From: Melioribacteraceae bacterium
GTDB taxonomy: Bacteria; Bacteroidota; Ignavibacteria; Ignavibacteriales; Melioribacteraceae
NCBI GenBank assembly: GCA_026983955.1
Contig: JALSTB010000013.1
Coordinates: 17,720 to 81,719, forward strand
Reading direction: 5' to 3'
Length of the DNA: 64,000 bases
Of this stretch, positions 1 to 9,559 are shown in pieces (the stretch's first letter is position 1; each line of letters begins with the position of its first letter). The position numbers and the translations under genes were made by a program. Under the pieces are notes generated by a model. It saw only the letters and a program-made list of their open reading frames with translations. It ran no database searches and was not told the origin of the DNA.

Positions 1-369
1 TAATTTAAGAGCTTCGGAATATTTACCGTTCTTATATCCGGCTATCATTAAAAGAAAACCTATAACTGATAATGCAATGGGGAAGTGTATTACTTTGTTG
101 TGAACATGTTCAAACAAAGTGTCTATGGATATTTCACCCGTTTCCTCCGCCTCTGTCAAAATTTCACTTTCAAGATGTTCTTCAGCAGCTTTTTTGTTTT
201 TATAATTTCCCACAGGTATTCCGTTTATTGCTATTGTGTCATTGCCTACTATGGTTAAAGTATCAGGCTTTTTTGTTCCCTTTTTTTCATGATCACCGTG
301 AGCATAAATTGAGAATGTAAGGAGTAAAACAAATACTGCGGTGTAAACTATAGATTTATAATCATTCAT
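1..369 (-). CDS. DUF2231-like integral membrane protein, N-terminal part only (gene runs off the left edge)
   Basis: Not in the ORF track because there is no stop in the window. My reverse-strand translation from the ATG at 369..367 gives MNDYKSIVYTAVFVLLLTFSIYAHGDHEKKG...TLFEHVHNKVIHFPIALSVIGFLLMIAG, open for 123 codons to position 1. The H-x4-HFPIAL motif resembles DUF2231. The gene starts 3 nt downstream of the preceding gene's stop. Confidence 0.6.
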   Translation of the reverse strand, partial: MNDYKSIVYTAVFVLLLTFSIYAHGDHEKKGTKKPDTLTIVGNDTIAINGIPVGNYKNKKAAEEHLESEILTEAEETGEISIDTLFEHVHNKVIHFPIALSVIGFLLMIAGYKNGKYSEALKL

Positions 370-372
370 AAA

Positions 373-1194
373 TTATATCTCCTTATTTAAACCAATAGAA
401 AATATATAATCAGAAGTTGAAGAATTTAATCCTATTGATAAAATTGTGTTCAATAATAATCCTTGATTTATTAAATAATTATATCCGAACCCCAATTGTT
501 TGGGAGAAGATGTTCCTTGAATAATTGTTGAGTAGGAATCATATCCGATATAAAACGAGTGTTTTTTATTATCCAATATATAAGCGGCTCCGGCGGAAAA
601 TGTGAGGGGGTTCGATATTTCCGTCCCCTCAATTTTACCTAAAAACAAATAACCTAATTGTGCGTAAAACATAAAACCCGACAAATATTTTTTTGCCCCT
701 AATGCAATTTGATAATCATATTCTCCGGTACCAATTCCTAATTTATCGGAAGCGGTAGGCAGCTTTATATAACCGTCCAGTGAAAAAGAAGGAAGTATAT
801 TTTTTTCTTTTATTAATTCGTAACTGGCATTAATGTAAAAATCCCCGATTCCAAAAGCCGGTGAATCCGATGTTCTTCCTTCGCTATCGGACATATGAGG
901 GAAGCCGTTAAACCAGTGGCGCGAGTCTCTTCCCATATGATTATTGGGGATAAAGGTATTTTCAATTTGAGTAAATGTATTTGAAGAGGTAACAACCAAT
1001 GGAAAATTAAAATTCAAATAAACGGGTCCCGATTGATACGTAATGCCGTTGTATAAAAAGAAAGAATTGTGCGACGATCCGTCATCGTATTTGCTGCCTA
1101 CCGTTTGCAGTGAAGAATTAAAATACCATTTCCCTTGTGCAAGAGCGTTATAACGTAACAATAATATTGTCAATAACAACATGATGGTTTTCAT
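373..1194 (-). CDS. Secreted putative outer-membrane beta-barrel protein (family uncertain)
   Basis: 273-aa ORF with signal peptide MKTIMLLLTILLLRYNALAQ. It shows alternating hydrophobic/polar strand patterns with aromatic residues (GYDSYS, GFGYNY, FSIGLN). It has a His/Met-containing loop, HMGRDSRHWFNGFPHMSD. It lies 14 nt downstream of the Met-rich gene. Confidence 0.6.
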   Translation of the reverse strand: MKTIMLLLTILLLRYNALAQGKWYFNSSLQTVGSKYDDGSSHNSFFLYNGITYQSGPVYLNFNFPLVVTSSNTFTQIENTFIPNNHMGRDSRHWFNGFPHMSDSEGRTSDSPAFGIGDFYINASYELIKEKNILPSFSLDGYIKLPTASDKLGIGTGEYDYQIALGAKKYLSGFMFYAQLGYLFLGKIEGTEISNPLTFSAGAAYILDNKKHSFYIGYDSYSTIIQGTSSPKQLGFGYNYLINQGLLLNTILSIGLNSSTSDYIFSIGLNKEI

Positions 1195-1208: not shown

Positions 1209-1718
1209 TTATTTATTCAGTTCTTTTTTCCTTTTTTCAAGTTTGTTCAGCATGTTATCATAATTCTTCATCATGTGTTTCATATTTTCCATCATATCAT
1301 TCATGTTTTTCATCATGTCTTTGTCTTGCATCATCTCCTTGTTTTGCATCATTTCCTTCATATGTTCCAGCATTTGTTTCATATTTTCCGACATCATATT
1401 CATATTTCCCATCATGCCAGCCATACCTTGAGAGTGTTGCATACCTTTCATCATGCCTTTATTCATCATTTGTTGTTGCTTACCCTTCATCATATTTTTA
1501 TCCATTCCTTGCATCATGTTTTGCATGCGTGTATGCATTTGATTCATATGTTCCATCATTTTTTCCATATTCATCATATTTTGCTGCATCATGTGTTGCA
1601 TATTTTTCTGCATGTTTTGATGCATGTGATTATTTTGGGCAAATAAGTTAGTTGTGCCGGCAAACAGCAAGAAAACCATACTTGCCGTTAAAACGAGTTT
1701 ATTAATTGCTTTTTTCAT
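1209..1718 (-). CDS. Secreted hyper-methionine-rich protein, putative periplasmic Cu(I)/Ag(I) binder
   Basis: 169 aa with signal peptide MKKAINKLVLTASMVFLLFAGTTNLFAQ. I count about 45 Met and about 8 His in about 141 mature residues, and no Cys. An AAGGAG RBS sits 7 nt upstream of the ATG. It is co-directional with the cus genes. Confidence 0.75.
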   Translation of the reverse strand: MKKAINKLVLTASMVFLLFAGTTNLFAQNNHMHQNMQKNMQHMMQQNMMNMEKMMEHMNQMHTRMQNMMQGMDKNMMKGKQQQMMNKGMMKGMQHSQGMAGMMGNMNMMSENMKQMLEHMKEMMQNKEMMQDKDMMKNMNDMMENMKHMMKNYDNMLNKLEKRKKELNK

Positions 1719-1756
1719 GGTAGTTCTCCTTATATTGTTGTGTTTTTGTTTTACAG

Positions 1757-2305
1757 CTATTTAACTTTATAGCCGTTTTCTTTTAATTTATTTATTGCAT
1801 CTTTAATAGAAACTTCTTTAAGATTCATACCACAGACCGGACATTCACCTGCTTCATCGGAAATTACATTCCAATCCATTTGATCTTGAAAAACTTTCCC
1901 ATCGCCGTTTTCATCAATTGCCTCGACATCAATTACACCTTTCCTAACAATAAAGTTTTTTTTGGCGGCGGCAATTTGTTCTTTATGTGCTTTAGCTTCT
2001 TTCAGGTTCATCATCTGTCCGTTTTTCATCAATCCGCGGTCTTTAACGTTTATGGATACCTCAGCCATTTTCATTCCGCATTCCTGGCAATTACTTTCTT
2101 TGTCGGAGATTTGATTTTTGTGCATTGGACATTGATATACTTTGCCATCTTTGTTTTTGTCGTATTGCATGATTTTTTTAGAGCTTATCTCACCTGATTT
2201 TATATCGGTATTATGTTTGTGATTATGTTCTTGTCCCAATGATTGACTTGTAGCAATTGACATCATCAGTATTGCAAACGATATTAGTTTAATTATCTTT
2301 TTCAT
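1757..2305 (-). CDS. Secreted protein with two heavy-metal-binding (CxxCGM-type, HMBD-like) modules
   Basis: 182 aa with a signal peptide and a His-rich mature N-terminus, QEHNHKHN. Module 1 is DKNKDGKVYQCPMHKNQISDKESNCQECGMKM. Module 2 is DENGDGKVFQDQMDWNVISDEAGECPVCGMNL. The C-terminal ~65 aa are paralogous to the CusB C-terminus. An AAGGAG RBS is present. Confidence 0.8.
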   Translation of the reverse strand: MKKIIKLISFAILMMSIATSQSLGQEHNHKHNTDIKSGEISSKKIMQYDKNKDGKVYQCPMHKNQISDKESNCQECGMKMAEVSINVKDRGLMKNGQMMNLKEAKAHKEQIAAAKKNFIVRKGVIDVEAIDENGDGKVFQDQMDWNVISDEAGECPVCGMNLKEVSIKDAINKLKENGYKVK

Positions 2306-2320
2306 GTTAACTCCTTGGTT

Positions 2321-2656
2321 TTATTTGATTACATTAATTTCACCGGTTTTGATTCTAACCGATTTTTCTATATTTGATACGAAAATCCAGCCGTCGCCGC
2401 TTTTACCTGTTCTTCCGTATTCGGCAATAACATTAACCAGCTCATCGGATTTTTCATCTTCACAAACCAGTTCAATTTTTACCACGGCAGAATATTTCTG
2501 AACATACTTAATTGAAAAGCTGAAAGCGTCTTCATCTGCCCATTCCGATAGGGCGTTGGCATCGAGAAGAGTCATTCCGGTAACCCCGGCTTCTTCCAAT
2601 TTTTGAATAACCAATTCAGCCCGGTCATGCCTGATGTATGCTTTGATTTCTTTCAT
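2321..2656 (-). CDS. PII (GlnB)-like signal-transduction-fold protein associated with metal efflux
   Basis: 111 aa. It aligns by eye to GlnB: MKEIKAYIR, GVTGMT, VKIELV, TGKSGDGWIFVSNIEKSVRIKTGE. The T-loop region is acidic and lacks the GlnB Tyr51 context. Confidence 0.85.
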   Translation of the reverse strand: MKEIKAYIRHDRAELVIQKLEEAGVTGMTLLDANALSEWADEDAFSFSIKYVQKYSAVVKIELVCEDEKSDELVNVIAEYGRTGKSGDGWIFVSNIEKSVRIKTGEINVIK

Positions 2657-2690: not shown

Positions 2691-2792
2691 TTATTTGCAA
2701 CAACTTTTACCATTATTGGCTTTAACAACCTTTCTGTACATTAGCAGTCCGATTAACCCTGCCAATATTACAATGATAATTATCTCCGTCAT
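2691..2792 (-). CDS. Unannotated 33-aa single-TM peptide with C-terminal Cys-Cys (FeoB-associated Cys-rich membrane protein-like)
   Basis: My own translation is MTEIIIIVILAGLIGLLMYRKVVKANNGKSCCK. Its ATG overlaps the cusA TGA as ATGA (2789..2792). It falls below the ORF-track size cutoff. Confidence 0.4.
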   Translation of the reverse strand: MTEIIIIVILAGLIGLLMYRKVVKANNGKSCCK

Positions 2793-5700
2793 TTTTCCGT
2801 TTCTTTATTTGTTTGATTGTTTTCATTTAAATTAAATTCAGGTATTAACTTTTTTAATTCCCTTTTTTTAATTATATAGAATATTGCGGGGAAAAGAGTT
2901 AATTCCATTAACATGCTCGTAATAATTCCACCAACCATCGGGGCAGCAATGCGCTTCATAACATCGGAACCGATACCGGTGCCAATAACGATAGGGAACA
3001 GACCGAGCATAGTTGTCATTACGGTCATCATTTTCGGACGTATACGTTTTACGGCACCTTCGAATATTGCTTCTCTTAAATCCGATACTGATTTCAGAAG
3101 ACCGTTCTTTTTAAATTTATCGTACGCAATGTCCAGGTACAGTAGCATTACAACTCCGGTCTCGGCACTAACACCCAGCAATGCAATAATTCCAACCCAT
3201 ACTGCAACACTGATATTAAAATCTGCCGCATATAAATACCATACGGCGCCAACCATTGAAAAGGGAAGGGCTAAAAGGATTATTCCGGTTTTAATCCATG
3301 ATTTGGTATTGATGTAAAGAAGCAAAATTACAATTAACAAAGTAATGGGAATTACCATTGCCAAGCGTTTGCCAGAACGTTCCATGTATTCGTATTGACC
3401 GCTCCAAATAAGAGAGTATCCCGGGGGCAATTCGATTTTCTCGGCTATAATTTTTTTTGCGTTTTCTACATACGTACCAACATCGATGTCTTTAAGATCA
3501 ATATATACCCAAGCATTCGGACGTGCGTTTTCGGATTTGATTGCAGGTGGACCTTTTTTGATTTCCAAATCGGCCAATTCTGCAAGCGGGACGTATCCGC
3601 CGTTCTTAACCGGTACTCGTACACGTTTCAGTTCTTCTATATTTTCCCTGTAATCCCGCTGATACCGGAGATTAACCGGATAGCGTTCCAATCCTTCAAC
3701 TGTTTTGGTGATATTCATTCCACCAATGGCGGACATAATTACATCTTGTACATCGTCTATTGTTAAACCGTAGCGCGCAATTGCATCACGTTTAATGTTA
3801 AAGTCGATATAATTTCCTCCGGCTGAACGTTCGGCATAAGCAGAGCGTGTACCGGGAATGGTTTTGGCAACCTGTTCGATTTCCTTTCCGATTTTTTGCA
3901 ACACGTTTATATCCGGACCGGCAATTTTAATACCCACCGGTGTTTTAATTCCCGTTGCCAACATATCGATTCTGGTTTTAATAGGCATTGTCCAGGCGTT
4001 TGTCAATCCGGGAAATTGAATAGCCGAGTTCAATTCTTCAACCAAGCTTTCCGGTGTAACGCCGGGCCGCCATTGGTCACGCGGTTTTAGTTGTATGGTT
4101 GTTTCAATCATTGAGAGAGGCGCCGGATCCGTAGCGGTTTCCGCCCGTCCAATTTTTCCGAAAACGGATTCAACTTCAGGGAAAGTTTTAATTATTCTGT
4201 CCGTTTGTTGCAAAATTTCCTTTGCTTTTGTGATTGAGATGCCGGGCAGAGTAGTTGGCATGTAAAGCAAATCACCTTCATACAAAGGAGGCATGAATTC
4301 GGAGCCAAGTTTTGCATACGGGAAGTATGTAATAACCATTATAATGAGAGCTCCAATTAATACCGCCCATCGTTTTTTCATCACAAAATCCACAACAGGA
4401 TGGTATATTTTGGTGAGGAATTTTGTAATCGGGTTATTTTCTTCCGAACGCATTTTACCTCTTACGAAAAATCCGAGCAATACTGGAACGATAGTAACCG
4501 CTAATATTGCTGCAGCTGCCATGGAATAAGTTTTAGTATACGCCAAAGGTTTGAATAACCTGCCTTCTTGTTGTTCCAAAGTAAAAACGGGCAAAAATGA
4601 AACCGTTATTACCAAAAGGGAATAGAATATAGATGGCCCGACTTCTTTTGCGGATTCAAGAATAATTGCCCAGTGCGGTCTTTGTTTTTCTTTGGGAAGT
4701 TCTTGCTCGCGTGCCAAGTGTGTGTGTGCATTTTCCACCATCACAATTGCGGCATCTACCATAGCGCCAATTGCTATTGCAATTCCGCCAAGCGACATAA
4801 TATTGGCGTTTATACCTTGCATTTCCATTATTACGTATGATGCCAATACGGCTGTTGGCAAGGTAAAGATTGCAACCAACGAGCTTCTAACATGTAAGAG
4901 AAAAATCATTATTATTATTGCTACAATTATGCTTTCTTCGGTAAGTGTGTTTTTCAAGTTTGCAATCGCTGCATTAATTAAATCGGATCTGTCGTATGAA
5001 GTAATGATTTCCACATCTTCAGGTAAAGAAGTTTTCAATTCTTCCAATCTTTGTTTAACGCGGTTAATTACTTCCAAAGCATTATCACCGTAACGCATTA
5101 CAATGATTCCCCCTACGGTTTCACCCTCGCCGTTCCAGTCGGCAAGTCCGCGCCGCAATTCGGGACCTATATCGATATTCGCAACATTTTCGAGGTAAAC
5201 GGGTGTACCGGTTTCCGGGTTTACGCCGATAACAATCTTTTTCAAATCTTCCACACTTTTAATATAACCGAGACCTCTGACCATAAATTCCATTTCACCG
5301 ATTTCCAAAAGTCTTCCGCCTACATCATTGTTGCTGCGTTTGATAGCCATTTTAACTTTACTTAAAGGAATACCGAACGATGCCAATTTGTTAGGATCGA
5401 TATTAACTTGATACTGCTTTACGAAGCCGCCGATACTTGCAACTTCCGAAACGCCGGGTAAAGCCGATAATTCATAACGTAAGAACCAATCTTGAATTGA
5501 ACGTAATTCTTGCAAATCCCTTTTATCGGATTTGAGTACGTATTGATAAACCCAACCGAGACCGGTTGCATCGGGTCCGAGCGTGGGGGATACGCCTTCC
5601 GGTAAATCTTTCTGCAAAGAACTTAAATATTCCAAAACACGGCTGCGTGCCCAATAAATATCCGTCCCGTCTTCAAAAATTATATACACCATCGAAAATC

Positions 5701-5995
5701 CGAAGAACGAATAGCCACGTACCACCTTAGCATAAGGAACGGAAAGCATTTTAGTTGTCATCGGGTAGGTTACTTGATCTTCTACAATTTGTGGACCTTG
5801 TCCGGGATATTCGGTAAATATAATAACTTGCACATCACTTAAATCCGGTTGGGCATCAACGGCAATATTATTTATTGCCCAAACGCCGGCTGCTATAAGT
5901 GCAATTGTTAAAATGATAACCATGAATTTATTATTAATCGACCATTCAATTAATTTGGCAATGAGACCATCTTTTTGATTTCCTGCTGGTACCAT
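2789..5995 (-). CDS. cusA: Heavy-metal efflux RND pump, CusA type (Cu(I)/Ag(I))
   Basis: 1068 aa with 12-TM RND architecture. It has the CusA/CzcA-family N-terminus LIAKLIEWSINNKF. The contexts of the three CusA relay methionines are conserved as I recall them from E. coli CusA: DLLYMPTT, SMIETTIQL, IDMLATG. Confidence 0.95.
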   Translation of the reverse strand: MVPAGNQKDGLIAKLIEWSINNKFMVIILTIALIAAGVWAINNIAVDAQPDLSDVQVIIFTEYPGQGPQIVEDQVTYPMTTKMLSVPYAKVVRGYSFFGFSMVYIIFEDGTDIYWARSRVLEYLSSLQKDLPEGVSPTLGPDATGLGWVYQYVLKSDKRDLQELRSIQDWFLRYELSALPGVSEVASIGGFVKQYQVNIDPNKLASFGIPLSKVKMAIKRSNNDVGGRLLEIGEMEFMVRGLGYIKSVEDLKKIVIGVNPETGTPVYLENVANIDIGPELRRGLADWNGEGETVGGIIVMRYGDNALEVINRVKQRLEELKTSLPEDVEIITSYDRSDLINAAIANLKNTLTEESIIVAIIIMIFLLHVRSSLVAIFTLPTAVLASYVIMEMQGINANIMSLGGIAIAIGAMVDAAIVMVENAHTHLAREQELPKEKQRPHWAIILESAKEVGPSIFYSLLVITVSFLPVFTLEQQEGRLFKPLAYTKTYSMAAAAILAVTIVPVLLGFFVRGKMRSEENNPITKFLTKIYHPVVDFVMKKRWAVLIGALIIMVITYFPYAKLGSEFMPPLYEGDLLYMPTTLPGISITKAKEILQQTDRIIKTFPEVESVFGKIGRAETATDPAPLSMIETTIQLKPRDQWRPGVTPESLVEELNSAIQFPGLTNAWTMPIKTRIDMLATGIKTPVGIKIAGPDINVLQKIGKEIEQVAKTIPGTRSAYAERSAGGNYIDFNIKRDAIARYGLTIDDVQDVIMSAIGGMNITKTVEGLERYPVNLRYQRDYRENIEELKRVRVPVKNGGYVPLAELADLEIKKGPPAIKSENARPNAWVYIDLKDIDVGTYVENAKKIIAEKIELPPGYSLIWSGQYEYMERSGKRLAMVIPITLLIVILLLYINTKSWIKTGIILLALPFSMVGAVWYLYAADFNISVAVWVGIIALLGVSAETGVVMLLYLDIAYDKFKKNGLLKSVSDLREAIFEGAVKRIRPKMMTVMTTMLGLFPIVIGTGIGSDVMKRIAAPMVGGIITSMLMELTLFPAIFYIIKKRELKKLIPEFNLNENNQTNKETEK

Positions 5996-6074
5996 ATTTA
6001 TCTCCTAAATTTCTTGATGGTTTTTGCTTCGTATCGCATCAGAATTATTACGGCGAAACAAAAACATTCTTACT

Positions 6075-7703
6075 TTATTTATATTGATATCCGTGTTCTT
6101 TCAAATTTTTCTTTGCTTCTTCAACGGTTACTTCCTGTAAATACATTCCACATACAGGGCATCTTCCTTCCGAATCCGATATGACATTCCAATCCATCAA
6201 ATCTTGATAAACCTTTCCGTCTCCGTTTTTATCAATTGCTTCCAAATCGATAACCCCGGTCCTTACAATATTTTCTCCGCCCATTTCATCCTCACCGGAG
6301 TTTTTATTTTTTTCCATATTCATATTTTTCATTGCACTTTTTGCCGTATCGTTTTCATTCGTTCTAGCCGAAGAGAATAATTTTACCGCAGCCCTTAAAC
6401 TGCTTTCGGAATCTATCATGAATTGACCTGAAACAACGATAATATCCTTTTCTTTAAGTCCATCCAGAACTTGATAATAACCTTTGGAATAATGACCTAA
6501 AGTAACTTCAACAGGTTTGAATTTGCCATCGCCCAACGATAGAATTACAATTGCCGATTTACCGCTTCTTATGACAGCCGTTTCGGGCACAACCGGTGTG
6601 GGTTCGAATTCATTACCGCTAATTTCAACATTGGCAAACATCGAAGGTTTAAGCTCTTCATTTTTATTATCCAAATCGATACGTACTTTAACGGTTCTGG
6701 TAACGGGATCTACAGTCGGGTAGATAAACGAAACTTTACCTGTATAGACTTTACCGGGTTTGTAGCTGAAATAAATTTTCACTTTGTTACCCAATTGTAT
6801 TTTATCCAGTTCACTTTCATAAATATCCGCTTTCAACCAAAGTTTGGTTAAATTGGCAACCTTCATGATTTCGTTTCCTGCTTTTATTCGATCTCCTTGT
6901 AAAACATTTTTGGAGATAACCGTTCCGTTGAACGGTGCATAAAGAGTAATATACTTTTTAACTTTTTTAGTTTTAATTAAGTTATCTATTTCCGGTTTGC
7001 TCACGTCGTATAATTCCAGTTTACGTTTTGCGTTTTCGAGGACAGATGCACCTTTGTTGTACATTAATGCAGTTAACAATTCTTGCTGTGCAGCGACCAA
7101 TTCGGGTGAATAAATGTCAACTAATTTTTGACCTTTAACTACTTTTTGTCCGACATAATTAACATAAAGTTTTTCAATCCACCCGTTAATTTTAGTGGTA
7201 ACGGCATATTCTTTGGTTTCATCGGTATCCAGATAACCGTTTGTGTAAACAACGGGTGAAAGTTTTTTCTTTTCAACCATAGTCATTTTCACGTTCATAC
7301 TTTGAAGAACGGAACCATCGACAGTAACAACTCCCGATGCGCCACCTTCATCTTCGTAAACCGGAACCAAATCCATCCCCATTTTCGACTTACCCGGCGC
7401 ATCATAAATTTCGTTCGGATTCATCGGTGCCCGCCAGTATAAAATTTTTCTTTCACCTTGTTTTGTAGAAGCGGATTTATTTTGTGTACTTTTAATGGGT
7501 GTTAATTTCATTCCGCAAATAGGGCAATTTCCCGGTTCTTTCTCGATTATATCTGGGTGCATACCGCATGAATACAACGTTTCTTCATCTTCGTGCATGT
7601 GGGTTTCGGTTGAGTTGTTGGGAATTATTAAATACAACGCTCCAGCGCCAATTAAAATCCCGATAATAAATATCACTGTGTACGTTAATATTTTATTCTT
7701 CAT
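6075..7703 (-). CDS. cusB: RND periplasmic adaptor, CusB type, with extra N- and C-terminal metal-binding modules
   Basis: 542 aa. The N-terminal HMBD is YSCGMHPDIIEKEPGNCPICGMKL. The CusB three-Met site context is PMNPNEIYDAPGKSKMGMDLVPVY. It has an MFP lipoyl/beta-barrel core, a Met-rich linker (AMKNMNMEKN) and a C-terminal DKNGDGKVYQDLMDWNVISDSEGRCPVCGMYL module. Confidence 0.9.
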   Translation of the reverse strand: MKNKILTYTVIFIIGILIGAGALYLIIPNNSTETHMHEDEETLYSCGMHPDIIEKEPGNCPICGMKLTPIKSTQNKSASTKQGERKILYWRAPMNPNEIYDAPGKSKMGMDLVPVYEDEGGASGVVTVDGSVLQSMNVKMTMVEKKKLSPVVYTNGYLDTDETKEYAVTTKINGWIEKLYVNYVGQKVVKGQKLVDIYSPELVAAQQELLTALMYNKGASVLENAKRKLELYDVSKPEIDNLIKTKKVKKYITLYAPFNGTVISKNVLQGDRIKAGNEIMKVANLTKLWLKADIYESELDKIQLGNKVKIYFSYKPGKVYTGKVSFIYPTVDPVTRTVKVRIDLDNKNEELKPSMFANVEISGNEFEPTPVVPETAVIRSGKSAIVILSLGDGKFKPVEVTLGHYSKGYYQVLDGLKEKDIIVVSGQFMIDSESSLRAAVKLFSSARTNENDTAKSAMKNMNMEKNKNSGEDEMGGENIVRTGVIDLEAIDKNGDGKVYQDLMDWNVISDSEGRCPVCGMYLQEVTVEEAKKNLKEHGYQYK

Positions 7704-9003
7704 CGTTTGTCTCCGTTCTGTTTTTCTCGATGTTAATTAATTCCGTACCGGCAAGGTATTCTATGGTAAATAAGTTTTTGTAATAATCAGTTCTTATTTT
7801 GGCAAGCTCGGTTTTGATGTTAAGAATATCGTTTTCCGCTTTAATTACATTGGCAAAATCGATTTTACCTACTTGGTAATCGGCTATTGCTGCTTTGTAA
7901 GCCTGTTGTGCTTGTGGCAAAAGCTGGTCTGTGATTAATTCTTCACGATTGAACATTTCCAATAATTTCGAATTCACCGTACCGAAAGTTTGTTGCAACT
8001 TTTGAACGGCAAGATTATATTGTTCATTGTATAGCGAGCCCAAATGTACCGCCCGGTTTACTTGTTCGGTTTTTTTGCCTCCATAATTGATAGGCAGCGA
8101 TATTCCAACCAATACCGAAAAGAAATCGACAAAATCCGTTGATGTAACCGAATTGTAATCCCTTTGGGAATATTGAAGTCCAAGTTTGAAATTGGGATAG
8201 AAAGAATATTCCGCTTGTTCCTTCATCAGCTGTGCTTTTTTTACCGATAATTTCAAACTTTGCAACTGAGGCCGGTTTTCCGTTGCAATTCTCACCAGTG
8301 ACTCTGTTGATGTTTCTAAAAATTTTATCGGTTGAATCTTTCCGGTTTGAATTTCTCCGGTTCCGTTTCTTAATAGATAAGCGTTGAGTTTTGCAAGTAA
8401 TGCTCTTTCTTCCGATTTCAATGATTCGATTTTATCTTTAACACGCGTGATTTGAACTTCCACTTGTACAAGGTTTTGCAGACTGGCACTACCCACATCG
8501 TATTTTTGTCTTACAACATCGGATATTTGCTTTAACAAGCCAATACTTTCATTTGCGAATCTGATATTTTCCCTTACGAACTGAAGTGAAAAGTAGAGTC
8601 CGGCAACTTCTTTACGAATTTTATTTTTTAAATCTATAATGTTTTGCCGGATAATTGAGGTATCAACCGCTTTAACACCGGCAGCGGAACTTAATGCGCC
8701 CGGAAACGGAATGGCTTGCGTTAGCCCGATGACTTTTCCCGTCATAGGTTCTTGTGTAAAAGAGAAAGAATTCACAGGTAAATTTGCCAAACCCAAAGTT
8801 AATACCGGATCGGGTAAATTTGTACCGATTTCAATCTGAGATTTGGCCACTCTGTATTTTGCTTCTAGCATTTTAATTTCCGGACTTACCGAAATAGCTT
8901 TGTTAATTAACCATTCCAAATCTTGCTTGTCTGGTGTTTTGTTTTGCGCATTAATAACCGACAATGCCGCTATTAATAGCACAATCAGAATTTTTGAGTT
9001 CAT
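7693..9003 (-). CDS. TolC-family outer-membrane efflux factor of the Cus-type pump
   Basis: 436 aa with signal peptide MNSKILIVLLIAALSVINAQ. It shows a two-fold repeated coiled-coil/barrel pattern typical of OMF proteins. Its stop overlaps the cusB start by 11 nt. Confidence 0.9.
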   Translation of the reverse strand: MNSKILIVLLIAALSVINAQNKTPDKQDLEWLINKAISVSPEIKMLEAKYRVAKSQIEIGTNLPDPVLTLGLANLPVNSFSFTQEPMTGKVIGLTQAIPFPGALSSAAGVKAVDTSIIRQNIIDLKNKIRKEVAGLYFSLQFVRENIRFANESIGLLKQISDVVRQKYDVGSASLQNLVQVEVQITRVKDKIESLKSEERALLAKLNAYLLRNGTGEIQTGKIQPIKFLETSTESLVRIATENRPQLQSLKLSVKKAQLMKEQAEYSFYPNFKLGLQYSQRDYNSVTSTDFVDFFSVLVGISLPINYGGKKTEQVNRAVHLGSLYNEQYNLAVQKLQQTFGTVNSKLLEMFNREELITDQLLPQAQQAYKAAIADYQVGKIDFANVIKAENDILNIKTELAKIRTDYYKNLFTIEYLAGTELINIEKNRTETNDEE

Positions 9004-9103: not shown

Positions 9104-9559
9104 TTAAATCAAAAAGGAATGTACGGCAAGGTATATTGGTGTTTTATATTCATTAAACAAGCGACCGGAATTTTCAGTAGAAATAAATTCTTTTCTTTCG
9201 CTTGTCAAATTAAAAGTAAAAACCACAACAAAACTTTGTTCGGAATTATATTTTGGAGTGATGACAAAGTTATTCGTGTCATTTAAATTTTTAACAATCA
9301 TGCAATTGTCATGAGTTAATTCCATGTCGCATGATTGATTTCCTAAGGATGAAAAATCCATGCCGGAATCGCAGCAATTATGTTCACCTTCGTGCATTTC
9401 CATTGAACATGTATGTGTTTCGTTGTATTCCATTGTGCAAGTTCCCGTGCACCGGTTTTGCGGAATGGCAAATAATAAAGGTGAAGCGGCGAAGTATAGC
9501 AGTAATAAAACCGCTACGGCTTTTTTAAGTTTTTCCGGTATGTAATAATTTAATTTCAT
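9104..9559 (-). CDS. Secreted Cys/His/Met-rich protein, first gene of the cus locus
   Basis: I chose the internal Met (MKLNYYIPEKLKKAVAVLLLLYFAASPLLFA) as the start, because the ORF track extends to 9607. After the hydrophobic segment come 7 Cys and 4 His in about 55 residues: CTGTCTMEYNETHTCSMEMHEGEHNCCDSGMDFSSLGNQSCDMELTHDNC. Confidence 0.6.
   Translation of the reverse strand: MKLNYYIPEKLKKAVAVLLLLYFAASPLLFAIPQNRCTGTCTMEYNETHTCSMEMHEGEHNCCDSGMDFSSLGNQSCDMELTHDNCMIVKNLNDTNNFVITPKYNSEQSFVVVFTFNLTSERKEFISTENSGRLFNEYKTPIYLAVHSFLI

Follow-up and report, generated by a model that had tools for sequence, protein, structure and literature searches.

What would a bacterium gain from exporting a small protein in which almost every third residue is methionine (Met)? 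The question is raised by a gene on the reverse strand (positions 1209..1718) of a 64,000-nucleotide stretch of a Melioribacteraceae genome (GCA_026983955.1, contig JALSTB010000013.1, positions 17,720 to 81,719; hereafter the window), for which an initial annotation, made from the letters alone, had proposed a secreted Cu(I)/Ag(I)-binding protein. We found that the Met-rich open reading frame is a real conserved gene, that its product is the extreme member of an unnamed family of predicted helical bundles, and that this family is tied to a gene for an outer membrane (OM) beta-barrel of the FapF/COG4313 type, which the initial annotation had treated as a mere neighbour. Below we set out the evidence for these statements and weigh what the pair might do.

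The gene encodes 169 amino acids (aa), terminates with a stop codon at 1209-1211 and is preceded by a Shine-Dalgarno-like AAGGAG at 1726..1731 on the same strand, 7 nucleotides (nt) before the ATG, the motif that the initial annotation had named as ribosome-binding site. Residues 1-27 (1638..1718, reverse strand) read as a Sec-type signal peptide, with n-region MKKAINK, h-region LVLTASMVFLLFAG and a c-region in which TTNLFA is followed by Q. The A27-Q28 pair is nearly invariant in an alignment of 22 family members, and judging from this alignment and the n/h/c layout the protein is probably cut between LFA and QN. The predicted mature chain comprises 142 aa, 45 of them Met (31.7%; 27.8% of the full-length protein), followed by 21 Asn, 19 Lys, 17 Gln, 9 Glu, 8 His, 7 Gly, 5 Asp and 4 Leu. 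The mature chain lacks Cys, Trp, Pro, Phe, Ile and Val altogether and has a single Tyr; Met and His together make up 53 of the 142 residues. These counts bear out the annotated picture of a secreted chain of about 141 aa with about 45 Met, no Cys and hardly any aliphatic residues. They also bear out its spacing, described as MM doublets with Met recurring at i+3 and i+4: successive Met residues lie 1, 3 or 4 positions apart in 14, 15 and 8 cases, respectively, and the periodicity of Met has its maximum at 98-100 degrees per residue, where it exceeds the 95th percentile of shuffled chains. By composition, though not by homology, the protein belongs to the Met-rich class (>20% Met, Cys-poor) of Liang et al. 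2012, and one orthologue (L024) is richer still, at 32.4% Met. Such a composition is by itself rare without being unique: in 2012 the nr database contained about 170 proteins above 20% Met, the highest of those tabulated being a Nostoc protein at 33% (PMC3514235).

Given so skewed a composition, the reading frame might not encode a protein at all, but be a low-complexity ATG/CAT-rich stretch that happens to be open. Two observations could be held to favour this artefact: the forward strand is open as well (frames 1181-1651 and 1275-1646), and a word-index homology search with the single protein found no homologue. The artefact is nonetheless effectively refuted. The frame begins with a signal peptide, follows a ribosome-binding site and is spaced from its neighbours as tightly as a gene of an operon, and 9 public contigs, which come from several samples and two genome bins, encode the identical protein, always within the same operon. 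Scans of genome and metagenome collections recovered diverged orthologues (29-67% identity) from Melioribacteraceae, a 'Chlorobiota' bin, Calditrichota and Balneolaceae; the gene is intact in 12 further loci, each time with a signal peptide and the AQ site, and no frameshifted or missing copy was seen in close relatives, contrary to what a degenerate locus would have left. Down to 29% identity and across phyla, the length, the AQ site, a C-terminal motif and the neighbouring genes are conserved. When the gene is compared with its orthologues, differences rank by codon position as 3 > 1 > 2 in the annotated frame, as in a coding sequence, and alignment scores to relatives lie 4.5-34 standard deviations above composition-matched shuffles; because shuffling erases the heptad periodicity, the latter scores alone overstate homology, for which the conserved adjacency of the barrel gene is an independent support. 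The substitution pattern and alignment scores together rule out an artefactual or mirror-strand frame. The two forward-strand frames, which oppose the Met-rich gene and are His/Ser-rich, one of them very much so in His, are mirror artefacts in which ATG is read as CAT, and could mislead gene callers.

To what family, then, does the protein belong? No model in Pfam or NCBIfam matches it, tblastn against 72,556 plasmids returned no match, and an exhaustive phmmer search of 1.84 billion cluster representatives yielded only 8 relatives (E 2e-12 to 9e-4). A profile search then raised the family to 55 members, all of 140-243 aa. No member has a meaningful name in any source, and only two carry a source name that identifies an organism ('hypothetical protein', Gemmatimonadota). 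The wider family has 52 further members, mostly from Gemmatimonadota, with 4.5-15.7% Met. What the members share is a signal peptide ending at the AQ site, a mature chain of about 130-175 aa with heptad repeats, a long N-terminal helical segment in which Met recurs every 3-4 residues, a middle region that varies, a C-terminal helix-loop-helix that is well conserved, and an adjoining barrel gene, and the window protein has all the diagnostic ones. We defined the C-terminal motif as M-M-x-[DN]-x-x-M-x-x-[DN]-[PK]-[ED]-M...M-E-x-L/M...H...M-E; the helix-loop-helix reads MMQNKEMMQDKDMMKNMNDMMENMKHMM in the window protein and DPxMQxEMERLRxH in Gemmatimonadota. Its most conserved part, MMQNKEMMQDKDMM (aa 123-136; 1311..1352, reverse strand), lies in the family alignment at the junction between helix 2, the loop and helix 3, recurs in the Balneolaceae member as MMQNKEMMRNKEM and grades into the Gemmatimonadota version.

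AlphaFold2, supplied with the family alignment, predicted three helices, spanning aa 30-85, 94-125 and 133-168, with a predicted local distance difference test (pLDDT) score of 78 and a predicted template modelling (pTM) score of 0.55. Helix 1 (1464..1631, reverse strand) would carry 20 Met in 56 residues, helix 2 (1344..1439, reverse strand) has Met or Leu in 3/7 heptad columns, and helix 3 (1215..1322, reverse strand) follows a clean xxMMxxM heptad. The idea that Met lines one face of a helix holds up in this model, in which helices 2 and 3 carry Met/Leu in exactly 3/7 heptad columns. The DNA itself has tandem periodicities of 18, 21, 12 and 24 nt, all multiples of three, of which 21 nt corresponds to one heptad. 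Searches by structure and profile led only to generic or designed bundles: Foldseek against the PDB gave no match for a single-sequence model and only non-significant generic bundles for the alignment-based one (best E 1.2), and profile searches of PDB sequences retrieved only designed antiparallel coiled coils and chemoreceptor bundles.

The alignment also shows where the Met residues sit. Thirty of the 45 align with positions at which 14 or more of 21 relatives have a hydrophobic residue. About 15 others, usually the latter half of an MM doublet, align with positions that the majority of relatives keep polar. Within the Met-rich clade the sum of Met, Leu, Ile, Val and Phe stays at about 32-35% of the mature chain while Met alone varies from 16 to 32%; because the sum is constant while Met varies, Met has taken the place of the aliphatic core residues. 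Most of the Met residues thus stand at the hydrophobic core positions of a conserved heptad-repeat family, rather than the free-standing novelty that the initial annotation had implied, whose image of a thioether 'zipper' fits the predicted structure well, as a heptad bundle with a core almost entirely of thioethers.

We then asked whether Met content follows the genomic context. In every member with at least 19% Met and informative flanks, namely the window protein, L015-L019, L024, P0002, P0003 and P0005 (19-32% Met), copper or other metal genes lie nearby. There are no metal genes near L020, L027, L028, P0007, P0014 or P0046, and Met is at most 15% in those of these loci for which it was computed individually, with P0046 falling within the wider-family range given above. 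The near-exception is P0004, which has 18.5% Met, no metal genes and no barrel. In the P0004 protein (loci L013/L014), a lipobox-like LFC replaces the AQ cleavage site, and it may be a lipoprotein offshoot of the family. Could the Met-richness be a by-product of AT-rich DNA? At matched G+C content (GC), members in copper islands have about twice the Met: L019 (43% GC, copper island) has 29%, compared with 15% in L020 and L028 (42% GC, no metal genes), and L022 (60% GC, next to an HMA-DUF2933 gene) has 22%, compared with 5-9% in loci of 67-73% GC without metal genes. An AT bias should moreover favour Ile, Leu and Phe no less than Met, whereas these three are nearly absent from the Met-rich members, and the by-product explanation is therefore ruled out. 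That Met content tracks metal islands at matched GC argues, at the level of sequence comparison, that the Met load was selected for metal chemistry.

The partner gene begins 14 nt past the stop codon of the Met-rich gene and encodes a predicted OM beta-barrel of 273 aa (373..1194, reverse strand) of the COG4313/Phenol_MetA_deg-FapF superfamily. It matches PF13557 with E 9.8e-10 and 39.3 bits, against a cut-off of 22 that the barrels of L009 and L028 also pass, and its profile matches FapF (5o67; E 3e-5) over the GD...LP...K-x-P-T-A/G region, a match confined to short conserved barrel motifs. It is not a FapF proper, as the barrel protein has no coiled-coil region and the island holds no other fap-like genes. 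A barrel homologue adjoins the family gene in L009-11, L015-20, L023-25, L027-28, L007, L021, L029, L031 and L032; the loci with a barrel thus comprise those of Ignavibacteriota, Calditrichota and Balneolaceae, that of P0002 and those of distant low-Met members of the Gemmatimonadota type (hmmsearch E 1.6e-44, 1.2e-39, 7e-12 and 4.9e-52); in several loci the helical-protein and barrel genes overlap by 4-8 nt.

Several features of the barrels and their loci may be recorded here. Residues ~83-103 of the window barrel form a His/Met-bearing loop (NNHMGRDSRHWFNGFPHMSD); in the alignment this loop is His/Met-rich in most barrels from copper islands (L015, L024, L019, L009), reduced in L016 and deleted in L017, and it lacks His and Met in barrels from loci without metal genes (L020, L007). 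The L018 barrel gene (L018:10225-11010) gives an open frame of only 32 aa by simple extension, yet tblastn aligns 268 residues (54% identity), so that the short frame is either a frameshift, an assembly error in the bin or an artefact of frame choice. In the P0002 locus (L009:807-4202), the cassette is preceded by genes for an HMBD (heavy-metal-binding domain) protein and two zinc-ribbon proteins, of which one is FtrD-like; a MacB-type ABC transporter takes the place of a resistance-nodulation-division (RND) pump, and a second, divergent barrel paralogue lies directly upstream of the Met-rich/barrel/DUF2231 cassette.

Taken together, the evidence supports an exported, helical protein with a Met-lined face or core, coupled to a barrel gene and specialised in copper/silver islands. 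On balance, and with moderate confidence, we take it to bind Cu(I)/Ag(I) through a lining of thioethers and to act as partner of the barrel. The 45 thioethers and 8 His would form many soft sites of low coordination that capture Cu(I) or Ag(I) in the periplasm: the interior a/d/e positions are predicted to be almost all Met, and further Met and the 8 His would lie alongside. The metal would arrive from the CopB-type P1B ATPase encoded in the island or leak in from outside, and the Met-rich protein would buffer it and hand it to the adjoining barrel, possibly also to the HMBD/CusCBA route. Known Met sites use three to four ligands per ion; at that ratio the capacity would be roughly 10-15 ions per chain, a figure to be read as an estimate and not as a result. 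We infer metal binding, its stoichiometry, contact with the barrel and the direction of hand-off from composition, predicted fold and gene context.

Several observations weigh against metal binding as the function of the pair. Pfam and NCBIfam scans, hhalign and BLASTP found no homology to any protein shown to bind copper or silver. A buried all-Met core would need to open or breathe to ligate metal. The sample on which Met content was related to context is small (about 18 informative loci) and its members are not phylogenetically independent. P0004 (the lipoprotein variant) and P0005 have no adjoining barrel gene, the only exceptions among loci with readable flanks. Finally, the low-Met wider family pairs with the same barrel outside metal islands, so that the pair may originally have had a role without metals.

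This last point bears directly on an alternative in which the helical protein is a gating or structural subunit of the barrel, a coiled-coil platform like that of FapF supplied in trans, with the Met core as a tolerated substitute for Leu, no metal bound and some other substrate for the barrel. The pairing is near-universal and includes the low-Met members outside metal islands, as such a subunit would require, and Met forms helices readily and is acceptable in a core. The coiled-coil domain of FapF is, for its part, needed for transport. A purely structural role nevertheless leaves unexplained why Met, rather than the equally AT-encoded Ile, Leu and Phe, came to fill almost the entire core in metal-island members alone at matched GC, why some 15 extra Met occupy mostly polar columns, and why the gene is embedded between HMBD and copper-pump genes; we regard this role as very unlikely.

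The resemblance of the barrel to FapF suggests two further possibilities, in which the Met-rich protein would engage the channel itself. In the first, the two genes would form a single OM system, a 'FapF in two pieces', in which the heptad protein docks on or passes through a 12-strand barrel and provides a route for Cu(I)/Ag(I). The all-Met version would then give a thioether-lined way out of the periplasm or to the cell surface that feeds a multicopper oxidase exported by the type IX secretion system (T9SS), independently of the TolC-type CusC duct. We consider this elaboration tentative and rather doubtful. In the second, the Met-rich protein would be cargo, threaded unfolded through the FapF-like barrel to the surface, as FapC is through FapF, where it would make up a Cu/Ag-binding coat near the T9SS-exported oxidase. 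FapF exports unfolded, Q/N-rich, Cys-free substrates (PMC5557850), and the barrel profile matches it, while the mature chain, devoid of C, P, W, F, I and V and with a single Tyr, has few bulky residues. The tight adjacency of the two genes would fit a substrate-transporter pair, the T9SS sorting domain of the island oxidase makes extracellular oxidation of copper probable, and CopM, a Met/His-rich copper binder that abstracts call a periplasmic 'metal sponge', reportedly occurs outside the cell too. Against export of this kind, the family is predicted to form a stable heptad helical bundle and not an amyloid-like chain, no accessory genes of the FapD/FapE type occur in the island, the match to FapF is limited to short barrel motifs, and the literature describes COG4313 relatives as taking up hydrophobic molecules (PMC4493636). 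Overall, we hold an unfolded cargo to be unlikely.

The surroundings of the gene give the periplasmic metal binder that we favour its setting. Read along the reverse strand, the operon runs in the order 151-aa protein, OEP, CusB-like, CusA-like, P-II, twin-HMBD, Met-rich, barrel and DUF2231. In agreement with the initial annotation, the Met-rich gene thus lies between the OM barrel gene (PF13557, 373-1194) and a gene for a secreted twin-HMBD protein of the CxxC type (1757..2305, reverse strand; PF19335 in two stretches, E 5.8e-19), which is upstream of the Met-rich gene in L015-18 and L023-26 also. Further upstream are CusCBA-like RND efflux genes (2789..9003, reverse strand), identified by Pfam matches and the Pfam assignments of L001, which comprise a CusA-like pump (2789-5995), a CusB-like adaptor with three HMBD stretches (6075-7703) and an OEP/TolC-like protein (7693-9003). 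Between the pump and HMBD genes lies a gene for a P-II-family protein (2321..2656, reverse strand; PF00543, E 8e-15). This GlnB-like protein has no signal peptide, keeps its place in all related Ignavibacteriota islands and also adjoins P0003. At the head of the operon (9104-9559, reverse strand) is a gene for a Cys/His-rich protein of 151 aa with a hydrophobic N-terminal segment followed by a Cys/His/Met-dense part (CTGTCTMEYNETHTCSMEMHEGEHNCCDSGMDFSSLGNQSCDMELTHDNCM); it has no match in Pfam or NCBIfam and weak homologues at the same place in L017 and L018, and could be a metal sensor or chaperone.

Downstream of the barrel gene, the 5' part (about 123 codons) of a gene for a DUF2231 membrane protein occupies 1..369 on the reverse strand and runs past the window start; it is whole in L001. 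The gene follows the barrel gene in Ignavibacteriota, and the Met-rich, barrel, DUF2231 order is kept in L009-11, L015-18 and L025. Longer contigs continue with genes for c-type cytochromes, a porin-like protein, a SHOCT protein, a P1B ATPase, a DUF302 protein and an NDH-2-like enzyme, and end with a multicopper oxidase and a cation diffusion facilitator (CDF) transporter. After the barrel gene, L001:11350-14044 encodes two proteins resembling c-type cytochromes and a porin-like protein of 394 aa, and the DUF2231 protein is weakly cytochrome b561-like; by sequence likeness this suggests a redox module attached to the copper island. The P1B ATPase (L001:14648-16750) has the features of the CopB type (P1B-3), with a His-rich N-terminus (HNHAEMKNHKHNTSHEHHEHK...) and a CPH transmembrane motif. 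The multicopper oxidase (L001:18439-20139, beyond the window start) carries a twin-arginine signal and a C-terminal T9SS sorting domain, because of which Cu(I) oxidation probably takes place on the cell surface. It has no Met-rich insert: Met makes up 3% of the whole, and no 30-residue window contains more than 4 of them. The Met-rich protein may stand in for the Met-rich domain by which oxidases of the CueO type recruit Cu+.

The putative redox module bears on a further alternative, in which the Met residues would act as a sacrificial sink: they would take up reactive oxygen or chlorine species that periplasmic Cu(I) generates, after which the protein would be degraded or repaired. Met-rich, Cys-free proteins are readily and reversibly oxidised (PMC3514235), and copper stress oxidises periplasmic Met, with MsrPQ repairing CusF (PMC9302797); the DUF2231 and c-type cytochrome genes after the barrel gene would suit such chemistry. 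The Pfam assignments of the 20-kb island, by contrast, include no family of the MsrA, MsrB or MsrP (methionine sulfoxide reductase, Msr) type, which rules out an Msr-coupled antioxidant system as the main role, and neither the partnership with the barrel nor the placement of Met in the heptad core is accounted for. We therefore judge a sacrificial sink highly improbable.

Why would a Met-cored metal binder matter? Periplasmic buffering of Cu(I) and Ag(I) and their crossing of the OM are known mainly from Proteobacteria (CusF, SilE/PcoE, PcoB). The locus suggests that Ignavibacteriota, Calditrichota and related lineages solved the problem in an unrelated way, by means of a stand-alone protein in which Met has taken over the heptad core and which is genetically coupled to a barrel of the FapF/COG4313 superfamily. 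If it does bind metal, few natural binders of Cu(I)/Ag(I) would be as dense in ligands; it would also offer a natural example on which to test helical cores made of Met alone, and its gene could serve to mark copper/silver resistance islands in uncultured bacteria. If 'FapF in two pieces' is true, it would be the first helical bundle from nature whose core is essentially all Met. The low-Met relatives (more than 50 cluster representatives, mostly from Gemmatimonadota) define in their own right an unannotated, conserved envelope module, and neither the family nor the barrel module is described in the literature that we searched.

Finally, how does the pair compare with known systems? Sequence relationships can be set aside for several of them. 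No CusF-type Pfam model matches, and the protein is predicted to be all-helical, unlike the OB-like beta-barrel of CusF/SilF. With respect to Spy, CpxP, ZraP and CnrX, one of 9 members gave a sub-threshold Metal_resist match (E 0.016), and profile searches retrieved no such PDB chain. CopM of Synechocystis, which has a DUF305 domain, binds copper as a helical bundle rich in Met and His, is encoded with a heavy-metal-efflux RND system and is proposed, in abstracts, to act as a 'metal sponge' (PMC4335983; bioRxiv 10.1101/013581); no family member matches PF03713, and hhalign to a DUF305 protein from a sil island gave a probability of 0.5%. SilE, DUF305 (the CopM domain family), the Spy/CpxP/ZraP group and, for the barrel, PcoB are thereby ruled out as homologues by hhalign, BLASTP and profile results, those for SilE and PcoB being given below.

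Other likenesses are of composition or of parts. The Met-rich inserts of CueO and CopA/PcoA, which are helical or disordered and dense in Met, serve to recruit Cu(I) (PMC11494321, PMC12041951), the Met-rich domain of CueO recruiting Cu+ (PMC11494321); these lie within an enzyme, whereas here the Met-rich element is a stand-alone protein and the island oxidase has no insert. MRP4-6, described by the Gladyshev group, are likewise secreted, (nearly) Cys-free bacterial hypothetical proteins, with 21-25% Met (PMC3514235). In the sections available of that report, MRP1-6 are used as redox reagents, with no physiological role or gene context given, and the likeness is one of composition only.

A functional parallel would be with SilE and PcoE, of which, and of the Met/His N-terminal tail of PcoB supplied in trans, the Met-rich protein would be an analogue. 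SilE and PcoE are sponges that use Met and His spaced along helices, with 10 and 15 Met, respectively (PMC5008109), in keeping with the annotated view that known Met-rich binders are less Met-dense. Like them, the window protein is Sec-exported, small (about 120-140 aa when mature), free of Cys and built with Met/His 3-4 residues apart on helices; it is encoded in a copper/silver island beside a CusCBA-type pump, with OEP, CusB-like and CusA-like genes in the operon, and first-line buffering of Cu(I)/Ag(I) is the role proposed for all three. It differs in its 45 Met, its predicted three-helix heptad bundle and its pairing with a barrel, the SilE/PcoE type being intrinsically disordered in the apo form and folding when about 6-9 Ag+/Cu+ are bound; the AlphaFold2 helices do not by themselves tell a folded state from a disordered apo form. 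Homology was not found: with a SilE sequence 100% identical to silE as annotated on plasmids, hhalign gave a probability of 0.2% (family alignment A3) and BLASTP with the window protein E 1.8, SilE/PcoE models were absent from the Pfam and NCBIfam scans at E<=1, and the ten-His pattern with its MxxHxxxxxHxxMxx and HxxMxxxHxxMxx repeats is lacking (8 His; 2 M..H and 2 H..M matches). PcoB and CopB likewise combine a Met/His-rich periplasmic element with a small OM barrel (12-strand in PcoB) in a copper-resistance locus, and the N-terminal His/Met region of PcoB is needed for copper resistance (PMC12509749). Here, by contrast, the two parts are separate genes and the Met-rich part is a predicted heptad helix bundle, compared with the disordered tail of PcoB; hhalign of the barrel (alignment A5) to PcoB from plasmid CP082383.2 gave a probability of 0.1%, and hence no homology.

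On the barrel side, the nearest relatives are FapF and the COG4313 channels (Pput2725, TcpY, SphA), with which the partner shares the PF13557 domain and, near the P-T-G/A motif, a match to FapF. To our knowledge, neither FapF nor COG4313 channels have a metal role. FapF joins a plugged barrel of 12 strands to a periplasmic coiled coil on which transport depends, and Pput2725, its closest structural relative, is a 12-strand plugged barrel as well (PMC5557850). In FapF the coiled coil is the N-terminal domain of the same chain, whereas here it would be a separate secreted protein. A Met/His-rich envelope binder of copper or silver is thus a kind of protein already known; what appear to be undescribed are the family itself, the near-total Met core and the pairing with a barrel of the FapF/COG4313 type.

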